From Verrucomicrobia subdivision 3 bacterium UBA6082 (lineage in GTDB: Bacteria; Verrucomicrobiota; Verrucomicrobiia; Limisphaerales; UBA8199), in NCBI GenBank assembly GCA_002428665.1, contig DIXK01000019.1, positions 28,758-92,757 of the forward strand: DNA of 64,000 nt. Direction: 5' to 3'. Below the pieces are notes generated by a model that had not been told where the DNA came from, did not search any database, and saw nothing but the letters and a program-made list of their open reading frames with translations. Below, in pieces: positions 22,660-37,492 of this stretch. Position 1 is the stretch's first letter; every line of letters begins with the position of its first letter. Position numbers and translations under genes: made by a program.

Positions 22660-23151
22660 GGTACCGTCTTTTGAGCAACCCATGTACCAAGAGGGTTGCG
22701 GTCCAAGCCACGTGGAATCCCCATAAACCAACTCGGATAATTCACCTCTGTGGAAGTGGCGTCGTATCAAGCCCCACCCGCGACGACCGCCACCGAATTT
22801 TCCAGGCGAATTCCCGAAGAATATTGTCTGTCGCGGCTTGGGTGCCACCCTCATTTCAATTCGATCTGTCACATACACGTGAAACCGACCCGGAGTTGTC
22901 ACACGCATGCGACAATCGGCGCCGCTGGGACAATGCTGATTACATGCGAATCTATGGTGGACTTCCTGGCGATTTGCCGCGCTGCCAAATGCGGTGAGAA
23001 TCCGCAAGAAAGCAGGGGAGGGGTTTGAACGCTCACCCGGCTTGGCAGACAGGAAACTCGCGGGAGTCGTTATTCGGGGATGAGCATGCTTGCTTTGGCT
23101 GGGTTGGCCAGCATCATGACAGTTGGTGATGTGAAAAACCGGCTATTGATT

Positions 23152-24597: not shown

Positions 24598-24606
24598 GAT
24601 ACGCGA

Positions 24607-24630
24607 TGTATGTTGGCGCACAATCTGTCC
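24607..24630 (+). repeat. left terminal inverted repeat of the element
   Basis: TGTATGTTGGCGCACAATCTGTCC, followed by further TGTCC copies at 24641 and 24648 and an inverted GGACC at 24727. Confidence 0.55.
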
Positions 24631-24767
24631 CGTTTTTTCATGTCCAATGTCCGAAAACCAAGGTAAAAGCTCTCAGGCGCCTGCTTTGGAGCTTTTTTAA
24701 AAACGCTCCAAAAAGCGTCTGTTTTCGGACCTAATCGGAACAGCCGGCGGATACCCTGATCTGCCTG

Positions 24768-25283
24768 CTATTGCCTGCTTGAAACGGCCTCTTTTTCCCC
24801 GGCCGTAAATTGGTTCAACTTGGCCCTAAGGGTTCGCTGTAACGCTGCCTTGTAGATGGCCAGGCCGTGCACGGTCTCGCCGCCCGGTGGCAGCACCCGA
24901 GCCTTAATGCCCTGGCAGTAGGAATCCGGGAATCCAAGGGAGGCCAACTGGCCTTCAATGGCCCGGATCTCCGCCTTCAACCCATGGTCAATGTAACGGT
25001 CCCTGCTAGTCTCGGCGCTTGTGTTTTTCTGTGACCAGAACCGTCTTTGCCGAAACACTGCAGAGGGCTTGCAGGGGGCCTGCACTTTGCCCAAATCGAC
25101 CCGGCGCCAGTAAATCGCCTCGAGGTAAGCCAGGCACCTATCCAGGTCCCGGTTGGTTAGCTTGGGATCTGTAGAAGACCTGCAGCCGGCCACAGCCCCT
25201 AGGGCGTCTCGATATTCGCCGTCCTCAAGCCCGGCCTCGCGCTGCGCTCGTTTTAACAGGATCTGTTGGGATCTGGTTAGCAT
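24768..25283 (-). CDS. GemA/gp16-like (DUF1018-like) Mu regulatory protein
   Basis: ILLKRAQREAGLEDGEYRDALGAVAGCRSS...DLDRCLAYLE and EIRAIEGQLASLG resemble Mu GemA/gp16-family proteins. The ATG at 25283 lies 5 nt after the ATPase stop. Confidence 0.5.
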   Translation of the reverse strand: MLTRSQQILLKRAQREAGLEDGEYRDALGAVAGCRSSTDPKLTNRDLDRCLAYLEAIYWRRVDLGKVQAPCKPSAVFRQRRFWSQKNTSAETSRDRYIDHGLKAEIRAIEGQLASLGFPDSYCQGIKARVLPPGGETVHGLAIYKAALQRTLRAKLNQFTAGEKEAVSSRQ

Positions 25284-25287
25284 GCGG

Positions 25288-26895
25288 TCACTGGGGCAAG
25301 AGTTGAGCCACTTCCCGAACGCCTTCCAGGTCATCATCCGAGGCTGGCTGAGCAGCCGGACGAGATCTCAAGGCAAATGGCGATGGCTCCTCGAGCTCTC
25401 CCATCGTCGGCGCAAGGTGCTCTACGTGTCGCGCCCGGCCGCTTCGCGGAGCTACGGCCGCAGCCAGAGCAGCATCGGATGGGATCACGCTGCCAACGAT
25501 GGCCCGGCGCAGGTCCTCTTCCTCAATCTGTGCCCGCCCGGCCTGGTTGGCTAGGTAGCGAGCGCGCCGCGCGGCCGTATCGATCGCGGCCAAATACTTT
25601 GCAGAGGCCTTAGCGTAAAGCACCAGCATCTTAATGGTTCGCCGGTCTCCTTCGGGCAATACGGACCTGGAAACGGCTTCGAGATCCTGATCCGAGAGCT
25701 TTTCTGGCAACTTCTGGTAGTGGCCCAGTCGCCCAGTAAATTGCTCGGATGCCCATCGCGTTTTGGCCTCCATCAGCTTCTGGGTCCTCATAAACTGGGG
25801 CGTAGTCACCAGAGCCACAGGCACCCCCATGTTGACCAGGGCGGTCATTAGCCAGTTCACCCGGCTGGGCAGGGACCTGGGGTCGATTAGGTTCGGCCAA
25901 AGGTAATGTGCTTCGTCCAAAACCAGCATCAGCCCGCCCCGCTGCAAAACATCCTCAATCCTGTCGCGCAGTTCAATCGCCTTACGATTGAGATTCACGG
26001 CCACGCCAAGGCTTTTGGCGATCGACCGGAAAAAACCAATTTCGTCATTCGTGCTCGGGACCTGCACATAGCGAGCTTGCCCTGGGTGCATCTCGCACCA
26101 GGCCTTGGCCGAGTGTGTCTTGCCCGTGCGGGCCAGCCCGTCGATCAGAACCATGCAACCACTCTGCAGTGCGTAGTCGAGCGTGTCGTAAACCTGTTTG
26201 CCGAGGGCTGTAACCACCGTGCGCTGCCGGCACTCCGCGATCTGCCCAGTCATGTATTCACGGAGCGTGCTGACTAGATCAGGGAAATACCACGGCCCGC
26301 CGACGATGGGCATTGATGGGTCCAGGCACAGCCTAGTCAAGTAGTCTAGCAGCCCCGAATCTGCCGCATTCCTGCAGCAGTCCAAAAAGACATCGCCGGG
26401 ATATGACGCCGGCCTGGTCGCGGCCTCGGCGTCGGCGATTTCATTCCTATGAATCGCAGCCTCAGCAATTCGCCTATCTTCAAGCAGGTAACTGTCACCC
26501 TCTGGGACTGCCGGCAAGGTGGCGATAGTCGCCGCCGAAAACTCGCCCCGAAGCAAAAATGACTCGGAGTCCGCATACGGAAGCTCATCTCGGATGGCCT
26601 TAACCCATTCGGCGCGAACCTGTCGACCGCGAGCAACCTTGAACCGTTGCATTGATGGGGTCTGGATTCGATCAGGGTAAGCCTCCACGAGCTGGCGGCA
26701 GAGTAACTGCAAGCCACCCTCAGCATGAGACCGCGCTTGGATAAACCAGATTAGCTCGCGCTCGCTGGGCGATTCCGGCAGCGCACACCGTTGAGCAACT
26801 AAGTTGGCCAGCAGCCCGCGTTGATACTCCAAGCTGCTGGCGTATCGTTCCTGTCGCAGTGGACCTCCGGTCTTAGCTGTTCGGGTGCTACTCAT
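25288..26895 (-). CDS. AAA+ transposition ATPase (MuB/TniB-like)
   Basis: Walker A GLARTGKTHS and Walker B LMLVLDEAHYL. Its start overlaps the transposase stop (ATGA). Confidence 0.8.
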   Translation of the reverse strand: MSSTRTAKTGGPLRQERYASSLEYQRGLLANLVAQRCALPESPSERELIWFIQARSHAEGGLQLLCRQLVEAYPDRIQTPSMQRFKVARGRQVRAEWVKAIRDELPYADSESFLLRGEFSAATIATLPAVPEGDSYLLEDRRIAEAAIHRNEIADAEAATRPASYPGDVFLDCCRNAADSGLLDYLTRLCLDPSMPIVGGPWYFPDLVSTLREYMTGQIAECRQRTVVTALGKQVYDTLDYALQSGCMVLIDGLARTGKTHSAKAWCEMHPGQARYVQVPSTNDEIGFFRSIAKSLGVAVNLNRKAIELRDRIEDVLQRGGLMLVLDEAHYLWPNLIDPRSLPSRVNWLMTALVNMGVPVALVTTPQFMRTQKLMEAKTRWASEQFTGRLGHYQKLPEKLSDQDLEAVSRSVLPEGDRRTIKMLVLYAKASAKYLAAIDTAARRARYLANQAGRAQIEEEDLRRAIVGSVIPSDAALAAAVAPRSGRARHVEHLAPTMGELEEPSPFALRSRPAAQPASDDDLEGVREVAQLLPQ

Positions 26896-29429
26896 GGCGT
26901 TGGCTCGCTTTCGCTGATTTGGTCCCCCGGCCCGTCCGAGTCCTTATCGGGGCTAAATAGATTGGCTATGTCACCGACGGCGAAAGGCTCAGGGCTTATA
27001 TCGTCCTCCGCTGACGGCTTCAGCATGCGATAGAGCTCGATCGCTGACTCCTGCTTTTCAGCGTCCCCCCGGTGAAATTCCAGGGCTGATTGCACGTCCT
27101 GCTCAGTTAAAGGCGTGCTGCGGATACGACGGAGCAGGGCCGCCTCCTGCCGGCGCCGATCGGCGGCTTGTTTCTTTTCCTCATTTAATCTTGATTGCAG
27201 CTCTTCTATCTCCTGGCCAAGCTTGACTGTCTCGGGAGTTGCGAAGACGCGCCTAAAATTAGGGTCGTGTTCCAATCGGAGCGCGCGGTAATAAGCCTTA
27301 GCGGGAGCATTATGTTGTGCAGCCCGCCTTAGTTCCTGGGATAGCAAATCCGGCGGGGCACCCAACCCTGGCACTTTTTGAGATTTCTCTACAATAAACG
27401 GGTTCTGCTGGTCCAAATCTGTAACCACGATCGAGTCAGGTATCTCTTGATCAAACCAGACCAGAACCTTCTGATTGACCAGCCATCCCGTTTTCTCGTT
27501 ACGATAAACACCACCGCCAAATGAACGCGGAAGCCGAATCCCGTTGCGCGTAACTCTCATCATGCTCCCATGATGTGACAGCTTGTAACGAAGCCAGGCA
27601 GGGAGTTTGGTCTGCGGATCGCTCGTTTTTTGCCGGTTTACAAATGCCGCGTCAGGGGACAGTCCCTCGCACAATTTGCCGTCTTGCGGGGTGGCGTTAT
27701 ACTTCGTGCAGATTTCATGCAAGCGCGACACCCATTGATTGGCGCTCAGGAATACATCGCTCGGATTCATCCGTCGCGCTTTAACAGCAAGTATAGCCTT
27801 CTGAACTCGCTCGAACTTGTCTTTACGCTCATCCCGACCAACGTAACCAGGGGTCGCCTCCATGAGGTCCTGAGCCGCCCCAATCACCCGCTCTACCAGC
27901 TTGACTCGCGCCGATCGGGCATGGATGAATTTCAGCCCAATATCACGAAAGCCTTTCTCTACTTCTGCGTTGGAAAAAGCAGTCCCATATGCCTTGCCCC
28001 CGGTAATGAGGCGAGAGGTTTCCCATATTCCGCCCTCAAAAACAAAGCCATATCTCGGCAAGCCGAATTCATCACAGGAGCGAGTCATCAACGTGCGGAT
28101 CGCACGGGCGTTGTAACTCCTGGACGAAAGCAAAATGAAGTCCAGAATTCTAGTAGACCTTAAGTCTATCATTATCAGGCACTGCCCCCTCATTAATGAA
28201 TACCACCCGTTCCCGTCCGGTTCATAATAGTAGACCGGTAATGTGACGTCGTCGGCCTGGTAAGCGTCGCCCGTGAAGACAGGCGACCAGTCGCGGTCAA
28301 TATAAGCACCGTTCAGTTTAGCTTGTTGGGGGCCGCGGTGAATGTTTTTGACAAGTCTGACCTTAGGCTGGACAAGGTCCCGAATCTTCCGGGGCACATG
28401 GGACTTGCTTCGGGGATTTGCGAGGTAATGCCCCGAAACCTCGGGGCCGAGCTTGTCCTTAACGTCCCGCCAGGCCTGAGAAACCCGGCTGCCAGTCTGG
28501 AAAACCGCATGGCCGACAATTCCATCCACGTCAGGCTTGGACAGATCTGGCGCTCTGAAAAACCCGGATTTATGCGGCCTTTGGTCTGTCACGGCCGACG
28601 GAATCCTCCCAGCCCGGACCCAGGCGGAGTATTTCCTGTCCCACTGTTTCCGCAACCCAGCGGGGCTGCCGGCGAGATAGTGGGAGGACTTCTCCAGGAA
28701 GGCCAGCAACCGACGCTTTTCCCGCTTCTGAGGCTTGCCGGCAGCGATCCCACGGTCAAACTCTTCGAACGCACTCACCCAGAGCATGGCCACTTCATCG
28801 CTCGATGGCTTACTCGGGTCCCTAAAGCTGGCGATACGCTTCTGTAGGGCCGGGATGGAAATGACCTGGCCGGTGGCGTTATCTGCGGCTTGAGTGCCGG
28901 CGTTATCGTCCAGGTAGATATCCAACCTTCCCCAATTCTCAACCCCAGCGTCCCTGGCTACCGTTCGATGAAAGAGACGGCGCCAGTGCCTGGCTGAAAT
29001 CGAAAACCCAAAGGCCTGCTTGTAGCCAGCCAGGCCGATGGCCTCGAAGTCCGCCTCCGAAATGCTTAGGTCATTAATCCGGGCGAGCGCAGGCGCTAAG
29101 GCTTTTTGTAGCATGGCTGCCTTCTCCTGGTGCCGGGGGCTGGCGTCCTTGAAGGCCACTGCCGGGTGCCAGGTCTGCTGCGGCGACAAGAGCAACTGCT
29201 CCGCGTTTCTGTAGCTGAGCTTGGCAGCCTGGCTGTTTAAACGCTCCTGCATCGCCGCCGGCAGCGCGCACAGATCCCAAGCGCTGGCCGGATTGCCGGA
29301 CACCACCACGACCCGGCCGGCGGGCGTGGATCGCAGCGCGGACAGCACCCAGCGCTTTGACAGGCCTAAGGCCAGCGCAATCTGCGCCGCAGTGAAGGAT
29401 TGAGTCGAGGTCTGGGGCTCAGAGGTCAT
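26892..29429 (-). CDS. DDE transposase, MuA/TnsB (rve-like) family
   Basis: N-terminal HTH (TAAQIALALGLSKRWVLSAL). Core motifs YQADDVTL, LIMIDLRSTRILDF, GLPRYGFVFEGGIWETS and ARVKLVERVIG parallel the Mu/Tn7 transposase catalytic regions. Confidence 0.8.
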   Translation of the reverse strand: MTSEPQTSTQSFTAAQIALALGLSKRWVLSALRSTPAGRVVVVSGNPASAWDLCALPAAMQERLNSQAAKLSYRNAEQLLLSPQQTWHPAVAFKDASPRHQEKAAMLQKALAPALARINDLSISEADFEAIGLAGYKQAFGFSISARHWRRLFHRTVARDAGVENWGRLDIYLDDNAGTQAADNATGQVISIPALQKRIASFRDPSKPSSDEVAMLWVSAFEEFDRGIAAGKPQKREKRRLLAFLEKSSHYLAGSPAGLRKQWDRKYSAWVRAGRIPSAVTDQRPHKSGFFRAPDLSKPDVDGIVGHAVFQTGSRVSQAWRDVKDKLGPEVSGHYLANPRSKSHVPRKIRDLVQPKVRLVKNIHRGPQQAKLNGAYIDRDWSPVFTGDAYQADDVTLPVYYYEPDGNGWYSLMRGQCLIMIDLRSTRILDFILLSSRSYNARAIRTLMTRSCDEFGLPRYGFVFEGGIWETSRLITGGKAYGTAFSNAEVEKGFRDIGLKFIHARSARVKLVERVIGAAQDLMEATPGYVGRDERKDKFERVQKAILAVKARRMNPSDVFLSANQWVSRLHEICTKYNATPQDGKLCEGLSPDAAFVNRQKTSDPQTKLPAWLRYKLSHHGSMMRVTRNGIRLPRSFGGGVYRNEKTGWLVNQKVLVWFDQEIPDSIVVTDLDQQNPFIVEKSQKVPGLGAPPDLLSQELRRAAQHNAPAKAYYRALRLEHDPNFRRVFATPETVKLGQEIEELQSRLNEEKKQAADRRRQEAALLRRIRSTPLTEQDVQSALEFHRGDAEKQESAIELYRMLKPSAEDDISPEPFAVGDIANLFSPDKDSDGPGDQISESEPTP

Positions 29430-29734
29430 GTTACTCTAAAAAGCAAAGCTGGCCGGTCCCCGATATTCGCCGCTCCTTCAAACGGCCGTTTCGGAAAGCG
29501 CCTTTCGGCAACCGGGCCGCCCCACAGCCCAGACCGACCAGCAAATTCTAAATTAATCCTCAGCGGGGATTCCGACCCCCGATTGCTACCCATTGCAAAA
29601 CGCAGGAAACCCATTGCAAAACGATTGCAGCCAAAAACCCCTAACTGGATACCCAGAAAACGTCCCAGGGCATCCTGGAGCGATTTCGCGGCTTGCCGCC
29701 AAGCCTGAGTTTTTGCAATCCAGGCGTGCATCAT
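29426..29734 (-). CDS. hypothetical 102-aa protein (or non-coding regulatory spacer)
   Basis: Supported only by ATGA start/stop overlaps with both neighbours. Contains the 15-bp direct repeats (peptide RFAMG x2). Third-position GC about 52 percent by my count. Confidence 0.3.
   Translation of the reverse strand: MMHAWIAKTQAWRQAAKSLQDALGRFLGIQLGVFGCNRFAMGFLRFAMGSNRGSESPLRINLEFAGRSGLWGGPVAERRFPKRPFEGAANIGDRPALLFRVT
29588..29623. repeat. two perfect 15-bp direct repeats, 21-bp period
   Basis: ACCCATTGCAAAACG at 29588-29602 and 29609-29623, flanked by CGATTGC at 29580 and 29622. About 160-200 bp upstream of the transposase ATG. Confidence 0.9.
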
Positions 29735-30219
29735 ACCTCGCAGCCTTCTTTGGTTTGGTTTCCAAGCAGCCACCGGGTCACTGCCGCTTGGCGGTCTACC
29801 TCGGCATTCAGTTCCGCGAGCGTGGGCATTGCCAGAACTCCGCCGGCGGTTGGCCACCACAGACGCCACACGTCCTCGCGGGTATCGATCCAGGCAAGCT
29901 GGGCGCAACCTGCCAGCCCAGCGCTAGCCAGGGCGCGCCGAGTCGTTTCCAGCCCGGCGCCTACGTTCTCACACCGGATAAAAACGATTGCGCGGTTTAA
30001 TTCGAGCCCTGCCGTGCATCTTTGCAAGCTAACTCCGTCCGCCCGGAATGATGCCTGCAGGAGCGCGCTTAGCACAATCGTGCCGATCCGGTTGAAAGAC
30101 GGGTAGCAGAGCGCCGGCGCCTCGGCTGGGTCCACTGAGATTTGCAAACGAACCAAAATGTTGAACTCGGTCAGTCCCGCGTTCTGCGAGTTCGGTGAAG
30201 GTTGGGGCTCGCGGTTCAT
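29731..30219 (-). CDS. hypothetical protein (162 aa)
   Basis: ORF linked to its neighbours by ATGA overlaps at both ends; no recognisable motif. Confidence 0.5.
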   Translation of the reverse strand: MNREPQPSPNSQNAGLTEFNILVRLQISVDPAEAPALCYPSFNRIGTIVLSALLQASFRADGVSLQRCTAGLELNRAIVFIRCENVGAGLETTRRALASAGLAGCAQLAWIDTREDVWRLWWPTAGGVLAMPTLAELNAEVDRQAAVTRWLLGNQTKEGCEV

Positions 30220-31538
30220 TTACTTCGAGTGTTGGCGATGAGCTGCTCTGCGCGCGCAATCCGCTGCAGGATGTCTTGCTGCTGGGCACTTAATCGCAGC
30301 AGACCCTGAGCGAATCGAGTATCGGTCTGGTTACCGGATTCGATTTGACTGAGAATCTGCTGTGCCAGGTTGGCGCGCTGTTGGTTGGTGGTAGCCAGGG
30401 CGCCTAGCCAGCCAACGGCGGAATCAGTTGCGGCGCCCGATTGGCGCACGGCCGATTCCTGACGCATGGCGGCTTCCTCACCAGGGAGAGACATATCCAG
30501 CCCAAAGGCCTCGACCGCAGCGCTGGCAGCGCCACTGGTCAGACTGTCGCGCCTGGCTCTGGCGGCATCCCGGCCGGCCCGACGTTCACGAAAGCTGTTG
30601 TATCGGCCGATGATGGCCTGGCTGTCGGCTATTCCGCCCTCTTCGCGGCGACGGGCTTCTTCCCAACCAGTGAAAGGACCCCAACGGTAATACGCCTTGG
30701 GTTGATGGAGCCAATACTTGAACCCTCCGCTCTGCATCTCCCCCAACATCCCCAAATATCCCTGCCGGCTAGCGATGTCCTTTTGGGCAAGCTCAGCTTG
30801 CTTGGCCAACTCGGCTTCGGTCTTATCATCGTCGGCTGAGCTTCCCAGGCGGATCTCGCCCGCCATACCCATTTTCCGACGAGCCTCAAGGATGAGGTTG
30901 GCCCGCCTTCCGTATTTCGCGGACAGTTCGCGTTGCGCGGCAATCTCCTTAATATTCAAACCGGCCTGGCCGTAGCGGTCCTCCAGGGCTTGCCTTGCGA
31001 CTGCATAATCTCCCTCACCCATGCTGTCTCGCTGCGCGTCAAGCCTAGCCATGTCCAGGGCACGCTGCTGCTTCAGAATCTCCATCTGAGCGTCAGCTTG
31101 CCGTTTAATGGAAGCAGCCAGTCGATCGCTGTCGGCTGTTGCTGATTTGTAGTGCTCGGAGGCCTGGCTAATCGCAAGACCGAACTCCCGCCAAGCGTTA
31201 GCGGCAGCCGTCACTCGCCCAACAAAATCAATCTTGATGTTGGGCAGTTCGAACCCAGCCAGGCTGCGCGTGAGTTCATCCACTCGCTTTCTCCAGAGTG
31301 CGAAAGCTGCCACAATTGCCAGGACCGATGCGGTGATGGGGTTGACCATCATGCTCGCCGCTTGGGCCAGCAGCGGGAACTGGAGCGAGAGCCCGCGGAA
31401 AGCGTCCTTGAGTTGGGTCGAGGCCTTGGCCGTCTTGCCGACGGCCGCCTCCACCTTGCCCAACGACTCGGCAGCGCGCTGCGCTCCAGACGTCTCGGCC
31501 TGGGTCCGTATCAGGATGTCAACCTGTTCATCGGCCAT
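30216..31538 (-). CDS. coiled-coil protein with central hydrophobic segments (tape-measure/scaffold-like)
   Basis: About 440 aa from the ATG at 31538 (MADEQVD). Hydrophobic stretch LQFPLLAQAASMMVNPITASVLAIVAAFALW, then long Ala/Arg/Gln/Glu-rich heptad-like regions. Confidence 0.55.
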   Translation of the reverse strand: MADEQVDILIRTQAETSGAQRAAESLGKVEAAVGKTAKASTQLKDAFRGLSLQFPLLAQAASMMVNPITASVLAIVAAFALWRKRVDELTRSLAGFELPNIKIDFVGRVTAAANAWREFGLAISQASEHYKSATADSDRLAASIKRQADAQMEILKQQRALDMARLDAQRDSMGEGDYAVARQALEDRYGQAGLNIKEIAAQRELSAKYGRRANLILEARRKMGMAGEIRLGSSADDDKTEAELAKQAELAQKDIASRQGYLGMLGEMQSGGFKYWLHQPKAYYRWGPFTGWEEARRREEGGIADSQAIIGRYNSFRERRAGRDAARARRDSLTSGAASAAVEAFGLDMSLPGEEAAMRQESAVRQSGAATDSAVGWLGALATTNQQRANLAQQILSQIESGNQTDTRFAQGLLRLSAQQQDILQRIARAEQLIANTRSK

Positions 31539-31542
31539 ACTG

Positions 31543-31830
31543 CTAGATCTTCGGCTTTCTTCCGACCCTGCCGACTTTGGCCTCCAATAGCCCACTGAAC
31601 CCTCTCAGCGCGTAAGCCCGGTCCCATCGGCGCAGTGAAGATTTCGAAGCGGCAAAGCGAAATTCGCGGGCAGTGCGAGCAAGAGCTGCTTCGCTGCCCA
31701 CGCCATCGCGGATTAGGTGCGAAAGCAATCGGACGGCTTGTTCGCGCATTAACGCGCGGCCTAGGGCTGGAGGCGAAAACTTGTCGCGCGCTCGATTGGG
31801 GCGAGCGCTTAGATTATTGGTGTTGGTCAT
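31543..31830 (-). CDS. small HTH DNA-binding protein (IS3/IS481 OrfA-like HTH)
   Basis: 95 aa from the ATG at 31830. ...AALARTAREFRFAASKSSLRRWDRAYALRGFSGLLEAKVGRVGRKPK resembles transposase-type N-terminal HTH domains. Confidence 0.55.
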   Translation of the reverse strand: MTNTNNLSARPNRARDKFSPPALGRALMREQAVRLLSHLIRDGVGSEAALARTAREFRFAASKSSLRRWDRAYALRGFSGLLEAKVGRVGRKPKI

Positions 31831-32028
31831 ATACTGAAGGAAAAGAATGCACCCTACCCGGACGATACGGGCAGGGTGCCAGGGAGAGGTAAAATCCACT
31901 GCTTGAGCAGGTGAGCAAAGCGGCGGCAAAACAACTCCCCCAACCAGCGCCCGACGGGGAAACAAACGACCCCTGCGGCTGCTGGTTAAATTTTTGTTTC
32001 ATGAATAATCCTATGCCTCGGAACGCAC

Positions 32029-32601
32029 TCAGTCGTAACGCACCGTTATTGCGTCCAGGCTACAGGCGCTCGTTCCGTCGAGCACCACGCGCACAGGCCG
32101 GCCACGATTGCCGCTGTAGATGGCCTCGCCCTGGTAGTTAACCGTGGCTGCAGCGCATTTGAGCGTGGTTGCGGCGCTCATCTTGTAAACCTCATCACCA
32201 GGCAGGGTCACAACGCCATTCGTGGCGACCAGGGTAACGTTGGTTGTGTTCGCGAACGCGGCAATAACCGCGCTCGTGTGCGTGCCGTCGGCATTCACGA
32301 TCACCAGGACGTCATCGGCCGCGAGGCCGTTGGTGCTGGTGACGCTTATCGTCCCGCCGCTGGCGTTGCTGGAGCCAATCACATAGGGAGTGGTCCCTGT
32401 GCGAATGGAGAGCACGCTCGCGGCCTTGTCGCTCGTTGCAATAGCCCCGACTAGCCGAATCTGCGCTTGCGGATTGGCAGGGAAATGCACTTCGCACGAT
32501 GCAGTGCCGGATGCGTTCTTAGTCACGTAATCGGCGCCTGCGGCCGGGAGGGCGACAATTGCCGCCAAAGCCAGGCCAAGAAGATTTCTAGTTCTGTTCA
32601 T
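32029..32601 (-). CDS. secreted beta-rich hypothetical protein
   Basis: Signal peptide MNRTRNLLGLALAAIVALPAAGA. Thr/Val/Ala/Gly-rich mature part. Lies immediately downstream of the capsid gene. Confidence 0.6.
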   Translation of the reverse strand: MNRTRNLLGLALAAIVALPAAGADYVTKNASGTASCEVHFPANPQAQIRLVGAIATSDKAASVLSIRTGTTPYVIGSSNASGGTISVTSTNGLAADDVLVIVNADGTHTSAVIAAFANTTNVTLVATNGVVTLPGDEVYKMSAATTLKCAAATVNYQGEAIYSGNRGRPVRVVLDGTSACSLDAITVRYD

Positions 32602-32642
32602 ATCGATGTTCTATTTCTCGATTGCGGTTGATTCGTTACGGC

Positions 32643-34028
32643 TTATGCCGCCGGCGTTTTGAGCGCAGAGGCTGCTTCCAGGCTCGCGTAATCGAAGTCG
32701 ACTAACTCCAGGAACCGAGTCGCCAGCTGGTCATACACAAAATAGACATGCTCGCTGGTATCGATGCGCGGCGTGCCCCGTTGGCCCATCCACCAAAAGC
32801 GCAGATTGCCAAAGACTGCCAGGTTCTTGCTAGCTGCAGCCGCTGTGCTGTAGGGTTGCAGAACCTCGGTCCATGTGATCGGGAACCCATCAAGGCGAGC
32901 GGTGCCGTCGGGCGTATAAACAAAGGCGTAAGGATCGCCTGCGGTGTTGAACGCACGCAACCGCGATTCCCACGACTGATTGAGGAAATACCGCGCACCC
33001 GAAAGTGCCCCGGTGGAAACCAAGCGCCTCATTTCACGGAAGTCTTCCAAATCGGCATCGCTGGGCTTGGTGTTGCCTGCAGCAAGCTCAATGACTTTAG
33101 CGTTCTCAGATGCGATCTGACACACGCCTTTGATTTCGCCATACGTGGCAGTGCCGTCTGCCAGGAAGCCCCAGGTATCTTCAGCACGAGCGAACTCGAT
33201 TGCCCCATAGCGAGCCAGGAATTGGCCCATAGCCACGGCGGAGCCAGTGTCAATCTCGGTAGGAACAATCACAATGCCACCAAGCTTGTGAGGCTCAAGG
33301 CTAGCAAAGGTTAAGGTCGGTTTCTTCTCGAGCACCTCGCCGCTCATATCGATAGCCCCGAAGGCAGGCCGCGTTCCCATCCGGGGCGGTTTGGCAACGC
33401 CCCCGGCCATGGGGTAGATAGTCATGGCCCTGCGGACAACGCCGAACTCCGCGATGAGTTCGACGAGCTCTGAACCGTAAATCTCCGGCAGCGGCACTTC
33501 GGTAGTGCTCAGCGCTCGAGTCGAGCCCACCAAGCTGCGGGCCTCGGCGAGCAAAGAGTCTCGGTGACTCGCGGTTGGAATGAAAGACTCCAGCTTGCCT
33601 GAGCGTTCCGCATGCAGCACCACGGACGCGGTTAGCGACCTTGCGCATTCGTCGCTCACCTGGCCCGGCCGGCGCGCAGTGAAACTGCCTGTCAGTCGAG
33701 CTCGTCGCAGCGAGACCAAGTGATCTGCCTGCTCGTTTGCAACCTGTTCCAACTTATCGGTCCGGCTCTTCAGGTTTCTCGTGTCTGTAGCCAACTCGGC
33801 GACACCAGAGAGAACGCGCTTCTGGAACTCGCCCCGATCCAATGGCTCATCGTCTCCTTCAGCCCGAGAGCGGCTGGCTGCAAGCCCAACTGGGAAAGCC
33901 GCGAGCACGCCGGCTTCTGGGATGCTGTAAATGACAGCGATCAGAGCCAGCACTGACAAGGTTACCAAGCCCAGCACCAGGACCCACGAGGGGACACTGT
34001 GCTGCCGTTCGTTAAATCGTTCATTCAT
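32643..34028 (-). CDS. HK97-family phage major capsid protein with N-terminal TM helix and coiled-coil (delta-like) region
   Basis: LPEIYGSELVELIAEFGVVRRAMTIYPM...LEKKPTLTFASLEPHKLGGIVIVPTEI...FLARYGAIEFARAEDTWGFLADGTATYGEIKG follows the Phage_capsid (HK97) consensus. N-terminal hydrophobic segment VPSWVLVLGLVTLSVLALIAVIY. ATG at 34028. Confidence 0.75.
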   Translation of the reverse strand: MNERFNERQHSVPSWVLVLGLVTLSVLALIAVIYSIPEAGVLAAFPVGLAASRSRAEGDDEPLDRGEFQKRVLSGVAELATDTRNLKSRTDKLEQVANEQADHLVSLRRARLTGSFTARRPGQVSDECARSLTASVVLHAERSGKLESFIPTASHRDSLLAEARSLVGSTRALSTTEVPLPEIYGSELVELIAEFGVVRRAMTIYPMAGGVAKPPRMGTRPAFGAIDMSGEVLEKKPTLTFASLEPHKLGGIVIVPTEIDTGSAVAMGQFLARYGAIEFARAEDTWGFLADGTATYGEIKGVCQIASENAKVIELAAGNTKPSDADLEDFREMRRLVSTGALSGARYFLNQSWESRLRAFNTAGDPYAFVYTPDGTARLDGFPITWTEVLQPYSTAAAASKNLAVFGNLRFWWMGQRGTPRIDTSEHVYFVYDQLATRFLELVDFDYASLEAASALKTPAA

Positions 34029-34047
34029 ACTAATTAATCTCGAAAAT

Positions 34048-34320
34048 TTAGATTCTGTTCCCCCGGACCGGAGCTGGGTATTCGCCAAGGGCGACCCCAA
34101 AAGGCCGGGTCAAAATCTGGTTGTTCCAGCCCTCTAAATCGGGCGCGCCGCTGGTCGATAGGCATAGGCGCGCATAAGGCCTGATCGACTGTCTCCGATC
34201 CATTCTGCCGGATTCTAACTGCACTAACAGGTGTGATGCCTGGCCATCCACCGGCGGCTGCCCAGGCTGCAAGCCTGCCGGATCTCTCACACCAAAATTC
34301 ACATTTGCCGCAACAATCAT
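34048..34320 (-). CDS. hypothetical 90-aa protein
   Basis: Fills the gap between the Ner-like gene (stop 34328) and the capsid ATG (34028) exactly; there is no other support. Confidence 0.3.
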   Translation of the reverse strand: MIVAANVNFGVRDPAGLQPGQPPVDGQASHLLVQLESGRMDRRQSIRPYARLCLSTSGAPDLEGWNNQILTRPFGVALGEYPAPVRGNRI

Positions 34321-34327
34321 GTCGCAA

Positions 34328-34714
34328 TTACTGCCCAGCCTGCTGGGTGCTGGCCTCGGCAGTCATTTCTTTGAGCTCCTGATTGCTTTTTTGCATGGTC
34401 AAAACAATCTTTCGCAGCCGGGCAAGTCGATAGTTCGCGGACTGGATCATAGCCGCGTTACCCCTCTTGCAGTCCTCAATGGCCCCCAGGATTTTTTCCT
34501 GGAACTCTAGCGAATACGGATTTGGCTGTTTCATAATTTCACTGATCTCGCGATACCCTGCCAGGAGCTTTGGGTCTTGACGCCTGCCGAGCAGGGTAAA
34601 CCGAAGGTGATTGTATGAGCACCCAAGGATCACAGCTGCATCCGCCAGCCCCGGCCACCGTCTTCGATTATGGCACACACTATGTTTTGCCAATTCTTTA
34701 TTGCAACGCGTCAT
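34328..34714 (-). CDS. Ner/Cro-like small HTH regulator
   Basis: WPGLADAAVILGCSYNHLRFTLLGRR resembles Ner/Nlp-type HTH domains. Divergent from the repressor gene. ATG at 34714 (ORF open to 34753). Confidence 0.5.
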   Translation of the reverse strand: MTRCNKELAKHSVCHNRRRWPGLADAAVILGCSYNHLRFTLLGRRQDPKLLAGYREISEIMKQPNPYSLEFQEKILGAIEDCKRGNAAMIQSANYRLARLRKIVLTMQKSNQELKEMTAEASTQQAGQ

Positions 34715-34798
34715 TGTGGGTAATAGGAAACACTCTTCCCGCTCTCCCGTCAAGGATTTCTTTGTTTTTTAATTCGACGGGTTAACATCGGCTTTTCG

Positions 34799-35620
34799 AT
34801 GCCTAGAAAGAACCCAGTACCAGCGCGCGACGTCGAAATTGGACGAAGGCTTGCGACGTTCCGTAAAGCCCGCAGATGCCCACGATCTTATTTGGCCGCG
34901 CAGACCGGAATGGATAGCTCCGCAATTGCGAGAATCGAACAAGGCCGGGTCCCTTTAAAATATCATCAAGCCAGGGAGATCCTGCGCTTCTTCAAGCTAA
35001 ACCCCATGTGGGTAGCCACCGGAATGGGATTAAAACAAGCATATTGGGAGCTTCCAAATTTCGAAAAAAGTGCGGAAAACGATGACTTTTCAAAGGTCAT
35101 GGAGTATTTTGGTGAGAGAATTTTTCCCCAGTATTCCTCGGATGTGATAAGGGAGGCCGAGCAGAGGTCTTCGGAACGGGAGCCAGCCATTGAACTGATA
35201 ACACTAGCTGCGCGAGAGTGGTGCGGAATGGTCAACGAGTCCTCATTCAATAGCTTTTTCAGTTCCTTGATAGACTACGGTTACTTCCTGGCGGAGAAAT
35301 ACCAACAAAACGCCATTCCCGACAATGCTCTAAGCAATCCAACCCCCCCTAGACCCCGCCCAGAGAATGAAATCAAAAAAAAGGACTTGCACGATGTTAA
35401 CGCAAAAGTTAATGATGGAGACGTGAACCAAATGGCCAGTCTGATAAACCGACTCCTGGTAGCAACCCAAGCTCGAGGCAAGAAATCTGAACTTGCGAGG
35501 TTCTTGGGCCTTCCGTTGGCTAGTGTTTCTCAGTGGCTGTCTGGCAAGCGATCCCCGTCCGGGGAAACCACGCTTAAGCTGCTGGAATGGGTTGAACGGC
35601 GAGAGCGTGAAACCAAATAA
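34799..35620 (+). CDS. repressor-like protein with two XRE-type HTH domains
   Basis: N-terminal IGRRLATFRKARRCPRSYLAAQTGMDSSAIARIEQGR and C-terminal KKSELARFLGLPLASVSQWLSGKRSPSGETTLKLLEW. Confidence 0.75.
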   Translation: MPRKNPVPARDVEIGRRLATFRKARRCPRSYLAAQTGMDSSAIARIEQGRVPLKYHQAREILRFFKLNPMWVATGMGLKQAYWELPNFEKSAENDDFSKVMEYFGERIFPQYSSDVIREAEQRSSEREPAIELITLAAREWCGMVNESSFNSFFSSLIDYGYFLAEKYQQNAIPDNALSNPTPPRPRPENEIKKKDLHDVNAKVNDGDVNQMASLINRLLVATQARGKKSELARFLGLPLASVSQWLSGKRSPSGETTLKLLEWVERRERETK

Positions 35621-35650
35621 AAACCCCAGCGATGCTGAAACATCGCAGGG

Positions 35651-36484
35651 GTGAATCGACCCAGGAGAAAGCACCGCATGCAAAGCAATACTAACAACCG
35701 GGCCAACGGCCACAGTAATAAAAAACGCACACGAAAGCAAACCGGACGTTTACTGGCCGATGATACCCAATCCTGCCAGCCCGCATCCATCTTCAACAAT
35801 GATGATCAGCTCAAAAAGTTGAGTGTCGATGAAATGGCCGAGCTTTGTGCAAAACATGAATCCAAATTCGGCCAGACGCCGGATTTTAATGATCTTGCAG
35901 ATATCTATGTCTATGATCTATCTGACGCCCAGATACTGGACTCGGTGTCCCTCCTGGTGGATGAGTTTGCGGACGATCTGAGCCAGCTGGTAAAGAAAAC
36001 CCTGGTGATCATGCCCGGCCGATTCAGAATCTGGGCTATGCACATGCTGTCATCTGTAGCCGCAGCGCGCGAAGCTGCCCGGCGTTGCCGGTGGTATGGG
36101 CTCAAGTCCGCGCCTGGTCGCATGGCAGAAAAAGAGGGTCATGGCCGCGAGCCGATGCTCCTGGATCTCTACGGATTCAGTGGGCGCGTGGCCTTTAGCG
36201 ATGGGGATCTGCTATCTCACATCTGTGATAATGTGTATGGCTGGCGCACTGAAATTCAAGAAAAGCTCCTTAGCCAGTATCACGGGCAGAGGCGCAGCAG
36301 AATGCTCGAGCTTCTCAGTCTTTGCGAGAAGGTTTGCCTGCGCGACGGAACGGCTGATGAGGCACTGTTAAGTGAAATGCGGTGCGGTTCCACTCCGACA
36401 GTCAACCTTGTCATGGACGATCGTAGTGATCGCTTTCTGCAGGCCATTAATACCCACCGGACCCCGGAAAAAGTAAGCCGGTAA
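35651..36484 (+). CDS. hypothetical protein (basic N-terminus)
   Basis: 277-aa ORF in the AT-richer segment with no recognisable motif. Alternative ATG start at 35678. Confidence 0.5.
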   Translation: MNRPRRKHRMQSNTNNRANGHSNKKRTRKQTGRLLADDTQSCQPASIFNNDDQLKKLSVDEMAELCAKHESKFGQTPDFNDLADIYVYDLSDAQILDSVSLLVDEFADDLSQLVKKTLVIMPGRFRIWAMHMLSSVAAAREAARRCRWYGLKSAPGRMAEKEGHGREPMLLDLYGFSGRVAFSDGDLLSHICDNVYGWRTEIQEKLLSQYHGQRRSRMLELLSLCEKVCLRDGTADEALLSEMRCGSTPTVNLVMDDRSDRFLQAINTHRTPEKVSR

Positions 36485-36497
36485 CCAGGTCTTCGCC

Positions 36498-36953
36498 GTG
36501 GACGCAAGCAGTAACCAATCGCCAGAGCCAACCCTGGAGACCATTACTGACGTCCAGGAACAGCTGATTGCGGCTATCGCCGGCCTGGACTCCGACCAGA
36601 GCCGGCGCGCTGAGGTCATTGGTAGGCTGCGCAGCCTCCGAAATATAGTAATATCAACCCTTGTCTGGATTCACGTGAAGGACGGTTTCAAAGAGGAAAT
36701 CGATCTCAAATTCGTTGGCGAGCCGGAAGGCCCCCATCGGCAAGTAACCAACTCCGACGCGGTCGTTTACCTGCGGGAGCTCCGGAGCATCGTTGAGGGT
36801 GCCCTGGACCTATCCAAGGAGGCCCCGCGCGATGGACTCGAGCAAGCCTTCGCCAGTGACCACGAGGTAGACGCGCAAGCAGTGAAAGACGCCCTATTCG
36901 ATAGCCGCGTTCGGCGCCTCCGCCAGGCGGTCGACAACTTCCGAGGCAATTAG
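36498..36953 (+). CDS. hypothetical protein (151 aa)
   Basis: GTG-initiated ORF 13 nt after the previous stop, followed by a rho-independent terminator. Confidence 0.5.
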   Translation: MDASSNQSPEPTLETITDVQEQLIAAIAGLDSDQSRRAEVIGRLRSLRNIVISTLVWIHVKDGFKEEIDLKFVGEPEGPHRQVTNSDAVVYLRELRSIVEGALDLSKEAPRDGLEQAFASDHEVDAQAVKDALFDSRVRRLRQAVDNFRGN

Positions 36954-36972
36954 GCCTACCCCACTCCCTAAC

Positions 36973-37009
36973 CGCCGGCTTGGCTAACCCCCTGGCCGGC
37001 GTCTTTTTT
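36973..37009 (+). terminator. rho-independent terminator
   Basis: CGCCGG-17 nt loop-CCGGCG followed by TCTTTTTT. Confidence 0.65.
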
Positions 37010-37075
37010 GCCGGTGGTGCCCCAGATCAGCGGCCGGGATCTCGCCCCCCTAGCCAGGCAACCCCCTTGTAAGCC

Positions 37076-37093
37076 GATTGCGCCAAGCTTGCA
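37076..37093 (-). repeat. third, internal end-like sequence
   Basis: The reverse complement TGCAAGCTTGGCGCAATC shares TG and the TTGGCGCA..ATC core with the left tip. Confidence 0.4.
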
Positions 37094-37345
37094 CCCCCTC
37101 AGAAATCGCCCTTCAGGGCAACTCAACCAGCCCCAAAACCCCCGTTTTTCGCTTCACACCTCACACCCCCCCCACCGCCACCGACAATTTGTCCACTTTG
37201 CATGTCCAACCCAATATTTACAGGGGTTTGCTCGCTGTCTGGTCTGGACATCCATTTTGGACAGATTATGAAAACTGGACAACTTATGGATTTCGACGCC
37301 TTTAATAACGTCGCTGTAAGCCATTGATTTTAAGGCCAATAAACC

Positions 37346-37365
37346 CTAATCAAGGCTAATCAAGG
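37346..37365 (+). repeat. perfect tandem 10-mer x2
   Basis: CTAATCAAGG CTAATCAAGG inside the right end. CCTAATC also occurs at 24730 in the left end. Confidence 0.9.
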
Positions 37366-37378
37366 AAAACCCCATTTC

Positions 37379-37402
37379 GGACAATTTGTCAGCCAAGGGA
37401 CA
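37379..37402 (-). repeat. right terminal inverted repeat of the element
   Basis: The reverse complement TGTCCCTTGGCTGACAAATTGTCC matches the left tip at 17 of 24 ungapped positions. Additional GGACA copies at 37246, 37259 and 37277. Confidence 0.55.
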
Positions 37403-37415
37403 ACGAATCGAAGAC

Positions 37416-37492
37416 TGGTACGCGAGGCGGGGGTCGAACCCACAACCTTCGGCTCCGGAGGCCGACGCTCTATCCAATTGAGCTACTCGCGC
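37416..37492 (-). tRNA. tRNA-Arg (anticodon CCG)
   Basis: The reverse complement GCGCGAGTAGCTCAATTGGATAGAGCGTCGGCCTCCGGAGCCGAAGGTTGTGGGTTCGACCCCCGCCTCGCGTACCA folds as a cloverleaf. Anticodon loop is CTCCGGA and CCA is encoded. Confidence 0.95.

Follow-up and report, generated by a model that had tools for sequence, protein, structure and literature searches.

The 64-kb window (the whole stretch of DNA analysed) contains an intact mobile element of 12,796 bp at positions 24607-37402, with TG...CA tips that are imperfect inverted repeats, TGTATGTTGGCGCACAATCTGTCC and TGTCCCTTGGCTGACAAATTGTCC (Table 1). Three TGTCC-type sites are present at the left end and seven at the right end, with six in a single 300-bp bin for 0.5 expected. 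Such TG...CA tips with several putative transposase-binding sites per end are characteristic of Mu-type termini, and together with the clustering of the sites they uphold the limits and the 24-bp ends proposed in a preliminary description of this DNA. The repressor-side terminus also harbors four tandem 10-bp repeats of the CCTTGATTAG type (37326-37365). Similar TTGATT repeats lie near one end of the full Mu-like phages L090 and L093; TTGATT-type 10-bp repeats and a TGTCC(C)G core are common to the ends of the element and of the phages.

Table 1. Features of the element and its immediate flanks (window positions)
Feature	Position	Strand	Remark
Candidate 4-bp target duplication, left flank GCGA	24603..24606	.	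partner ACGA at 37403-37406, match 3/4
A-B-side terminus	24607..24660	.	TG tip, 24-bp terminal site TGTATGTTGGCGCACAATCTGTCC, two more TGTCC sites
GemA-like gene, nearest the tip in the operon	24768..25283	-	Pfam GemA E 0.002, under cut-off
B, predicted MuB/TnsC-family AAA+ target-DNA activator, 535 aa	25288..26895	-	AAA_22, TniB, phrog_296
A, MuA/TnsB-fold DDE-type transposase, 845 aa	26892..29429	-	phrog_310 4.6e-26; AF2 fold match
Small ORF, 102 aa	29426..29734	-	ATGA overlap at each side
o162, 162-aa protein	29731..30219	-	in this analysis found in compact elements only
o459, 440/459-aa coiled-coil protein, one hydrophobic segment	30216..31538	-	found only in compact elements here
Small HTH protein, about 95 aa	31543..31830	-	homologous to the N-terminal domain of the full Mu-like phage transposase
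Terminator-like hairpin, 12-bp stem, past the capsid-o190 pair	31849..31879	-	consensus scan only
o190, capsid-linked beta-rich protein, 190 aa	32029..32601	-	85% identity to phage L001 gene
HK97-type major capsid protein, 461 aa	32643..34028	-	PF05065, phrog_10
90-aa ORF between ner-like and capsid genes	34048..34320	-	no family match
"Ner-like" gene, first in the leftward operon	34328..34714	-	name from position only
Repressor-like protein, two Xre/cI-type HTH domains	34799..35620	+	divergent from ner-like gene
Accessory ORFs (277 aa; 151 aa) past the repressor gene	35651..36953	+	
Terminator-like hairpin past the accessory ORFs	36980-36999		
Repressor-side terminus	37190..37402	.	CA tip and seven TGTCC-type sites
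tRNA-Arg(CCG), intact	37416..37492	-	3' end 13 bp from element tip

Transposition and regulatory genes

The transposase A has no match in Pfam, NCBIfam, PDB sequences or cultured phages. Besides its PHROG match, it is identified by an AF2 model (pLDDT 64.6, moderate) whose first structural match is the Mu transpososome 4fcy (E 4e-10), followed by TnsB 7svw and 1bcm (MuA). Residues D393/D394, E465 and E513 are invariant in the alignment and are predicted, from it alone, to be catalytic, and identity to the A proteins of full phages is about 25-29%. The gene for the ATPase B is joined to A by an ATGA overlap and its product matches AAA_22 (2e-11), TniB (8e-5, at threshold) and phrog_296 (1e-14). 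The B family profile has MuB 8xvb as its best PDB match (4.6e-5), then ShCAST TnsC (4e-4), and some 220 aa at the N-terminus of B form an extension that is conserved. The repressor matches HTH_31 (1e-11), HTH_3 (2e-11, in two stretches) and phrog_2328 (2e-13). The MuA/TnsB-type transposase, the MuB/TniB-type ATPase and the dual-HTH repressor recognised in the preliminary description are all upheld by these data, and the four successive ATGA start/stop overlaps of the leftward operon are real on re-check.

Other assignments of that description stand in part. The GemA-like protein scores 19.5 bits against PF06252 for a cut-off of 27, and this profile matches two of the seven members of its family; its position is conserved, phages L090-L093 (full Mu-like phages) having a gene with 42-47% identity close to the corresponding end. 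The gene called Ner-like is indeed the first of its operon and divergent from the repressor, but it has no Pfam or PHROG match that would place it in a Ner or HTH family; its own family is common to 26 loci, full phages among them. The small HTH protein turns out, further, to be homologous to the N-terminal domain of the phage-type transposase, with 45% identity in 71 aligned aa; in phages L090-L095 this region is part of the A ORF. Finally, the gene order was said to mirror the early region of Mu: it corresponds to the early arm of Verrucomicrobial Mu-like phages rather than to that of Mu itself, with A, B and gemA reading outward at one tip.

The remaining genes are less informative. The 102-aa ORF is weakly similar (E 0.001) to a 75-aa gene lying between terminase and portal in phage L001, with 44 nt at 86%. 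As to o162, a protein of about 150-190 aa precedes A in many related elements. No match to o459 was found in Pfam, PHROG, PADLOC or NCBIfam; homologues are present in the compact elements L010, L016 and L024, and proteins of 450-704 aa occupy its position in other members of the family, as RadC-like genes do that of the accessory ORFs. No ORF of the element matches TnsA, TniQ or TnsD in Pfam, NCBIfam or PHROG, very divergent versions being possible, and no Cas12k or CRISPR array was detected. Family searches of all ORFs also gave no terminase, portal, tail or lysis match, as previously described, and no such genes were found elsewhere in the 64-kb window. The only components of a virion module are the capsid gene and one partner gene.

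The capsid gene and its phage relatives

The capsid protein aligns with positions 9-276 of the 280 of PF05065 (E 2e-17, 63.8 bits for a cut-off of 24.2) and matches phrog_10 (E 2e-20), confirming the HK97-type assignment made earlier. It has a hydrophobic and coiled-coil N-terminal region of about 190 aa. More than 669 homologues were found, the closest of which sit in complete phage head modules; identity is 58% to the capsid of the full Mu-like phage L001 and 62% to that of the compact element L010. Its neighbor o190, first taken for a signal-peptide protein, is better described as a capsid-linked protein: the counterpart in phage L001 comes right after the capsid gene, and the family is a downstream neighbor of the capsid gene in many phages. 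The AF2 model of o190 (pLDDT 86.5) is all-beta, without informative structural match.

Nucleotide identity to phage L001 is 82-90% in o190 versus about 60-65% in the capsid gene, and this sharp jump at the boundary points to recombination between the element and phage lineages. Phage L001 was found in the same two metagenomes as the element, whereas the o190 protein of this candidate helper is absent from the NCBI source holding the proteins of the element. More generally, relatives of the capsid, o190, gemA-like, ner-like and A genes are harbored by full Mu-like phages of 36-39 kb. Having related capsids, these phages represent a plausible type of helper; none was found within the window. In these phages the capsid gene lies among the late genes, on the strand opposite to the A operon, whereas in the element it lies within the A-B operon.

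Encapsulins share the HK97 fold, and this, with the unusual N-terminal hydrophobic segment, could mean that the capsid protein serves the element or its host otherwise, for instance in a compartment of the encapsulin type or in a GTA-like particle of the element's own making. Such a use appears most improbable, as the best matches are phage capsid families and not encapsulin families, the nearest homologues belong to complete phage head modules, and the element has no cargo-enzyme or packaging genes.

A family of compact elements beside tRNA genes

The same compact backbone was identified at 34 genome loci and at further metagenome loci, nearly all labelled Verrucomicrobiota, so that the search for related elements of about 13 kb suggested in the preliminary description was positive. 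The 13 measured elements range from 6.4 to 13.8 kb, and no terminase was found in 37 loci. The transposase A family comprises 945 clusters at 50% identity (464 with E <= 1e-30). The A proteins of compact elements group separately from those of the 36-39-kb Mu-like phages. This separation argues for an old lineage and not for recent deletions. The capsid genes of compact elements fall at scattered positions among those of phages, a pattern to be expected if they were captured repeatedly from co-resident phages. A capsid gene is present in about 40% of the members with enough upstream sequence, and the others have a portal or a protease-like gene, no gene that can be recognised or, in a single member, apparent defence genes. 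The sets of head genes observed are capsid, protease and capsid, portal with protease and capsid, or portal and protease-like, and in more than half of the family no head gene is recognisable. In the exceptional member, apparently type I R-M and DarT/Macro genes lie beside A-B instead of head genes.

Three capsid-bearing elements measure 12,796, 12,825 and 12,701 bp, about 0.34 of the length of the phage contigs (36.0-38.8 kb), although their A proteins are only 35-47% identical. The present element was seen in three assemblies, identical in sequence and always at the one site, and one related element occupies a single site among 24 contigs examined. Three contigs (L010, L011 and L038) end at, or within 20 bp of, element tips, which suggests junctions varying within the population. 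One of 2.9 million IMG/VR contigs carries this type of A.

The element is an intact representative of a large family of compact transposons in Verrucomicrobiota, which has as its basis the regulatory and transposition arm of that phylum's Mu-like phages; no description of this family was found in the literature consulted. That it would instead be a defective Mu-like prophage, decaying after loss of its late genes by deletion and rearrangement, is very unlikely, even though every recognisable gene has homologues in full Mu-like phages and no current mobility was observed. All reading frames and both ends are intact, four junctions are translationally coupled, and o459 and o162 were not seen in the phages sampled. 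The location and strand of the capsid gene differ from those in full phages, a layout that simple deletion cannot yield. Moreover, the compact plan is kept by dozens of divergent relatives, and the clade of their A proteins contains no full phage. Decay had already been doubted in the preliminary description, and no full-length prophage, which would have spoken for it, was found among the relatives.

The tRNA-Arg(CCG) gene next to the repressor end is presumably the target landmark of the element. Insertion 11-17 bp downstream of tRNA genes was observed for 11 of 13 elements with confirmed ends; the geometry seen here is repeated in at least 11 related elements, and a perfect 4-bp target duplication is present in seven of 13. 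Orientation at the tRNA sites is biased, the repressor end being proximal in at least 12 cases and the A-B end in two. Mu has near-random targets and a 5-bp duplication, neither of which is found in this family. A fixed short distance downstream of a "safe" gene that is left intact rather resembles, by analogy, the behavior of Tn7-type elements, which use safe sites beside tRNA genes (PMC8649781). Having a few dozen tRNA sites as targets fits poorly with Mu-style replication by repeated transposition.

Proposed packaging by helper phages and alternative lifestyles

An incomplete set of virion genes, combined with its own regulation and integration functions and a size about one third that of the candidate helpers (12.70-12.83 kb vs 36.0-38.8 kb), is what characterizes a phage satellite. 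The best reading in our view, about as likely as not, is that the element is a transposable, capsid-supplying satellite of Mu-like phages, by which it would be packaged. In favor of it are also the recurrence of the compact plan with varying head genes, the genes and end repeats in common with full Mu-like phages, the signs of exchange with the L001 lineage and the tight size of three capsid-bearing elements. Against it can be set the single site at which the element was seen, the absence of the o190 protein of L001 from the NCBI source, the many members devoid of recognisable head genes, the choice of tRNA sites, the compatibility with helper parts that the capsid protein would need, and the single IMG/VR contig with this A type, although that count fits packaging as well as its absence. 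Growth of a Mu-like helper of about 37 kb in the cell would lift the repressor of the element, and the leftward operon would then deliver the element's own major capsid protein together with the 190-aa partner at an early stage, and A and B next. For protease, portal, terminase, tail and lysis functions the element would depend on the helper. Encoded without a portal or scaffold, the capsid protein would have to assemble together with components of the helper, and it would form, or divert assembly to, heads that hold some 13 kb, a third of what the helper genome measures. Headful packaging by the helper, starting near one end of the element, would fill these small heads. In a new cell, A and B would act on the TG...CA ends with their several binding sites and insert the DNA beside a tRNA gene as a safe site. 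The stand-alone DNA-binding domain of the helper-type transposase may interfere with helper transposition or exploit it.

Several traits are shared with cfPICIs, P4, SaPI, PICI, PLE and PICMI, namely compactness, about one third of the putative helper genome, a partial head module, a repressor switch, the lack of packaging motor, tail and lysis genes, and the exchange of genes with a phage lineage. A similar ratio of satellite to helper size is known for P4/P2 and SaPI1/80alpha. Known satellites differ in that they integrate via recombinases of the tyrosine or serine type and have a primase or replicase of their own for replication, whereas the element has only MuA/MuB-type transposition proteins; to our knowledge, all known satellite families (P4-like, PICI, cfPICI, PLE and PICMI) integrate by site-specific recombinases. 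In addition, cfPICIs harbor capsid, portal, head-tail connectors, a small terminase and a tyrosine integrase, whereas the element has only the capsid and its partner protein, and no integrase. A transposing satellite is not mentioned in a review of these elements (PMC11389934). Somewhat more doubtfully, the family could be the first of transposable phage satellites: natural mini-Mu elements living at the expense of Verrucomicrobial Mu-like phages and combining repeated capture of helper head genes, for capsids fitted to their own size, with re-insertion by MuA/MuB-type proteins and protein-only tRNA targeting without a recognisable TniQ, TnsD or guide RNA.

The likeness to Mu and Mu-like phages lies in the MuA-fold transposase, the MuB-family ATPase, the multi-site TG...CA ends, the repressor divergent from the early operon and, weakly, the GemA-like gene. 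The differences are the size (12.8 kb vs about 37 kb), the lack of terminase, portal, tail and lysis genes, the capsid gene in the early operon, the tRNA-proximal insertion with a 4-bp duplication, and an A protein distant from phage A and without Pfam match. Mini-Mu derivatives were made by deletion in the laboratory, whereas the lineage described here is natural and diversified. Polintons/Mavericks, eukaryotic transposons encoding capsid proteins, likewise unite capsid genes and a DDE-type integrase or transposase within a single element. This is an analogy only (PMC4028283), given that their proteins are unrelated (double jelly-roll capsid, protein-primed polymerase), their hosts eukaryotic and their morphogenetic set full.

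With Tn7-like and Tn5053-like elements and V-K CAST, the element shares the TnsB-like fold of A and a TnsC-like ATPase, TnsB and TnsC being the second-best matches, and with V-K CAST also the absence of TnsA. As in Tn7-like elements, orientation is biased and insertion takes place a little way downstream, at a set spacing, of a conserved gene, in many cases one for a tRNA, which stays intact (PMC8649781). However, TniQ/TnsD, Cas12k and a CRISPR array were not detected, structure and profile comparisons rank MuA and MuB first, the element has head genes of phages and a repressor/ner switch of phage type, the duplication is of 4 bp and not 5 bp, and no more than 11-17 bp separate the insertion from the 3' end of the tRNA.

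This resemblance bears on another reading, rather unlikely in our view, in which the element would lead a Tn7-like life as a transposon directed to tRNA genes, without ever being packaged. A and B would keep it at safe sites, and its phage-derived cargo would interfere with infecting Mu-like phages. A capsid or DNA-binding-domain "decoy" would poison head assembly or transposition, to the benefit of both host and element, as defence cargo does. Besides safe-site insertion as in Tn7-like elements (PMC8649781), it would account for the variable cargo, with one member carrying type I R-M and DarT/Macro genes beside A-B, for the lack of head genes in many members, for the stand-alone homologue of the phage transposase N-terminal domain and for the near absence of this element type from IMG/VR. 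On the other hand, the uncharacterised proteins of the element match no known defence family, interference alone does not predict the tight 12.7-12.8 kb of three capsid-bearing elements at one third of the phage size, and subsets of capsid, partner, protease and portal genes resemble building parts more than single decoys. Interference and packaging as a satellite are not exclusive, and known satellites also interfere with their own helpers.

If true, satellites relying on proteins of replicative transposition would represent a new way of being a satellite and extend the reach of satellites into an understudied phylum. As the transposase has no Pfam, NCBIfam or cultured-phage match, standard annotation probably misses the family. 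Regardless of the satellite question, tRNA-proximal insertion with a 4-bp duplication is of interest: a MuA/MuB-type pair that uses selected sites without a known target selector links Mu, with its random targets, to Tn7-like elements, with their selected ones. Being compact, such a pair is a candidate for insertion systems that are programmable or directed to safe sites, and protein-only safe-site targeting, if true, would be new in the Mu/Tn7 superfamily.

Gene content, ends and surroundings of the element

The gene map proposed in the preliminary description was reproduced by ORF listing and profile searches, including the HK97-type capsid gene, the MuB/TniB-type ATPase (B), the dual-HTH repressor-like gene and the MuA/TnsB-type transposase (A), for which profile evidence is given in the table. 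Two further assignments are weak: the GemA-like gene scores under the Pfam threshold, and the Ner-like gene is named by its position alone. At the sequence level, A has no match in Pfam, NCBIfam, the PDB (profile search) or 50,697 phage genomes, and it is placed by PHROG and fold comparison only. Its AlphaFold model, built from 11 homologues and of moderate confidence (pLDDT 64.6), resembles in order the Mu transpososome, TnsB of ShCAST and Tn7, and IstA. As a single sequence, B retrieved nothing from the PDB and a family profile was required; with 18 homologues, this gave MuB as best match and ShCAST TnsC as second.

Features of the element and its surroundings (positions in the window)
Feature	Position	Strand	Characteristics
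Element	24607-37402		12,796 bp; starts with TG, ends with CA
B, MuB/TnsC-family ATPase	26895-25288	-	535 aa; matches AAA_22, TniB and PHROG 'DNA transposition protein'
A, MuA/TnsB-fold transposase	29429-26892	-	845 aa; PHROG transposase family, 4.6e-26
o190, capsid-linked protein gene	32029-32601	-	190 aa
HK97-type capsid gene	34028-32643	-	Pfam Phage_capsid, 63.8 bits (cut-off 24.2); also phrog_10
Repressor-like gene		+	273 aa; two Xre/cI-type HTH domains
Tandem 10-bp repeats	37326-37365		repressor-side end
tRNA-Arg(CCG) gene			intact; 3' end 13 bp from the right tip
Flanking host genes, left	19801-23007		ordinary in appearance
Flanking host genes, right	37707-41158		ordinary in appearance
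Strong GC skew	57-60 kb		coincides with apparent haem-biosynthesis-like genes, read from translations

The 24-bp tips of the element are imperfect inverted repeats of each other, and TGTCC-type sites are clustered at both ends (a single 300-bp bin holds 6, where 0.5 are expected). A terminator-like hairpin follows the capsid-o190 pair. When compared for variation between copies as a test of selection, the element sequence in three assemblies was 100% identical to the window, and the 30-bp right-tip sequence is also present in a JGI locus (L008). In a metagenome contig collection that does not include the L008 sample, neither an empty site (the stop of the HExxH gene joined to tRNA-Arg) nor the 30-bp right tip at another insertion site gave a match. 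The surroundings are host-like: to the left lie a multihaem cytochrome (1068 aa, with fn3 domains) and a 505-aa ORF, earlier called the HExxH gene, and to the right a MoxR-AAA/DUF58/transglutaminase operon. The 64-kb window holds no phage genes besides those of the element, the tRNA is the sole match of an Rfam scan, with no small RNA or guide, and a PADLOC search of the unknown ORFs of the element for defence cargo gave no match.

A family of compact elements and its links to Mu-like phages

Relatives of the capsid protein number in the hundreds at 50-65% identity and occur in two kinds of context: complete head-tail modules of Mu-like phages (L001-L003, L006), with Mu gp27, terminase, a portal-MuF fusion, a protease-like gene, capsid, a 190-aa gene and tail genes, and compact elements with a build like that in the window (L004, L010). 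Scanning a single genome per species gave 34 A-type loci, nearly all labelled Verrucomicrobiota, and the A family returned by a full HMMER search forms 945 clusters at 50% identity, of which 464 reach E <= 1e-30. The relatives of A are about 800 aa long and none has a Pfam domain. Both ends could be located in 13 elements of 6.4-13.8 kb, whose tips start with TG, rarely TA, and carry a common motif in the terminal 25 bp. Iterated HMMs with Pfam confirmation identified a capsid gene in 11 of 37 compact loci, a protease/scaffold-like gene in five and a portal in three; a terminase (large subunit or gp27-like) was found in none of the 37. In a JGI relative of the A/B pair (3300067032), the genes directly beside A are a short HTH gene and, in one block, type I restriction-modification, DarT and Macro (DarG-like) genes, which suggests that some family members bear defence cargo. 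Three different A-clade copies (L018, L026, L042), 38-48% identical to A of the window, occur in one MAG labelled Candidatus Limnocylindria (Chloroflexota) and reflect either several elements in one genome or mis-binned contigs.

In simple neighbour-joining distance trees, with compact loci gathered by their own transposase as bait, the transposases of compact elements group together and apart from those of phages, while their capsids fall at six or more places among phage capsids. Given this clustering of transposases and scattering of capsids, the A-B backbone is, as judged from sequence, old and diversified, and head genes were apparently captured on repeated occasions. Moreover, the phages have the capsid gene on the strand opposite A, whereas compact elements have it inside the A operon. 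A simple recent deletion of a phage is excluded by this orientation and by the transposase tree. A decaying prophage is a very unlikely origin, and the four ATGA overlaps claimed for the operon are all present.

The candidate helper L001, a full Mu-like phage, was found in the two metagenomes that also yielded the contig of the window, and IMG/VR holds many of its relatives, with contigs clustering at 36-39 kb. L001-type phages have a transposase of 480-690 aa, 25-29% identical to A, whose N-terminal domain is homologous (45%) to the separate small HTH protein of the element. A gemA-like gene with 42-47% identity likewise lies near the same end, ner-like genes are among the early genes that these phages share with compact elements, and they have capsid plus o190 pairs. 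The capsids of L001 and the element are 58% identical and the products of the next gene, o190, 85%, and nucleotide identity rises from about 60-65% to 82-90% at the capsid/o190 boundary. We interpret this as an exchange of genes between phage and element lineages, which would therefore have shared a host; a tetranucleotide comparison of L001 with the host gave no discrimination. L001 also has, at its positions 5015-5398 just before the terminase gene, a Pfam match to the Acb2/Tad1-hairpin (anti-CBASS/Thoeris sponge) family.

The phage ends have the same TGTCC(C)G core as the element ends and, in two cases, TTGATT-type 10-bp tandem repeats such as lie 38-77 bp from the repressor-side tip of the element. 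The repressor-side ends have three or four 10-bp repeats in tandem, at a distance of about 35-75 bp from the tip. The window element, L021 and L024, which encode a separate HTH protein, have the TTGATT type, which also occurs near one end of phages L090 and L093, whose transposase carries the HTH-protein domain; in a small sample, elements lacking the separate protein have a CCGAA type. The repeats could be a binding site of the HTH domain or a pac-like site.

Insertion beside tRNA genes

A tRNA gene adjoins 11 of the 13 elements with both ends confirmed by inverted repeat, with the repressor end proximal in 10 and the A-B end in one (L029). At most loci, with A set on the plus strand, the tRNA gene reads toward the repressor-side tip, and its CCA end lies 11-17 bp from the TG. 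A tRNA gene is also at the expected place in five more loci, whose ends are unconfirmed, and lies directly upstream in two further independent metagenome loci (L104, L105); L096 is the L013 site again. P0132, a widespread relative, did not differ in context among the 24 contigs read. The tRNAs used are Leu-CAA, Leu-TAG, Leu-GAG, Val-TAC, Val-GAC, Gly-TCC, Arg-CCG, Arg-TCG and Glu-CTC, and the tRNA-to-tip spacers show no conservation. By a rough estimate, random insertion would give such a tRNA-proximal position about 2 times in 10,000. The flanks of the window show no synteny with other occupied tRNA sites; therefore, the other insertions were independent or their surroundings have been rearranged.

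A perfect 4-bp direct repeat flanks 7 of the 13 elements (six independent sites), and three of the four bases agree in the window. Mu and Tn7 duplicate 5 bp of target, in contrast to the 4 bp of this family. Searches of the element ORFs against Pfam, PHROG and NCBIfam, together with Rfam, revealed no TniQ/TnsD target selector, TnsA, Cas gene or Rfam RNA. Tn7-like elements with dedicated selectors use safe sites downstream of tRNA genes (PMC8649781); no report of such insertion by a Mu-type A/B pair was found in the literature searched. Candidate selectors are a conserved 220-aa N-terminal extension of B and the proteins of 450-704 aa and 150-190 aa that precede A in many members.

Two elements that differ in size, L023 (8.9 kb) and L033 (6.4 kb), share a tRNA-Gly(TCC) site, TCGA flanks and similar upstream sequence, and may represent one old inherited, shrinking insertion or repeated use of one site. 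The assemblies of L010, L011 and L038 end exactly at the element tip or 4-20 bp past it, as would be expected if junctions vary among cells; such variation could come from more than one insertion site, from an element present in only some cells, or from packaged DNA whose host ends vary.

Possible life cycle and place among mobile elements

Three capsid-bearing elements measure 12,796, 12,825 and 12,701 bp, with transposases only 35-47% identical. Relative to the phage length this gives a ratio of about 0.34, close to those of P4/P2 and SaPI/80alpha. The structure of the o190 protein is predicted confidently, and the model gave no informative match in the PDB or BFVD; the 'decoration protein' role is guessed from where the gene lies. 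A different use of the capsid, for instance as a compartment, is very unlikely.

The preliminary description had proposed a transposable phage satellite, the reading that we favour, at about an even chance. Of that proposal, the parts, ends, family, target preference and phage relationship were observed, whereas induction, assembly, packaging and interference are inferred. The repressor would hold the leftward operon silent until a Mu-like helper grows, when the capsid and o190 proteins would be made first, followed by the HTH protein, the 440-aa and 162-aa family-specific proteins, A, B and the GemA-like protein. Protease, portal, terminase, tail and lysis functions would come from the helper, and headful packaging that starts at one end would fill heads of a size for about 13 kb. 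In the next host, A and B would then place the DNA next to a tRNA gene. Alternatively, and with rather low probability, the element would be a transposon that targets tRNA genes, is not packaged at any stage and has phage-derived cargo that interferes with phages; this reading overlaps the satellite model, and the data do not separate the two.

A full-text literature search of partial coverage found no transposing satellite, capsid-bearing Mu-type mini-element or tRNA-targeting Mu-type transposon, and a 2024 review of helper-dependent elements (PMC11389934) mentions none either. The element unites features of satellites, transposable phages and safe-site transposons.
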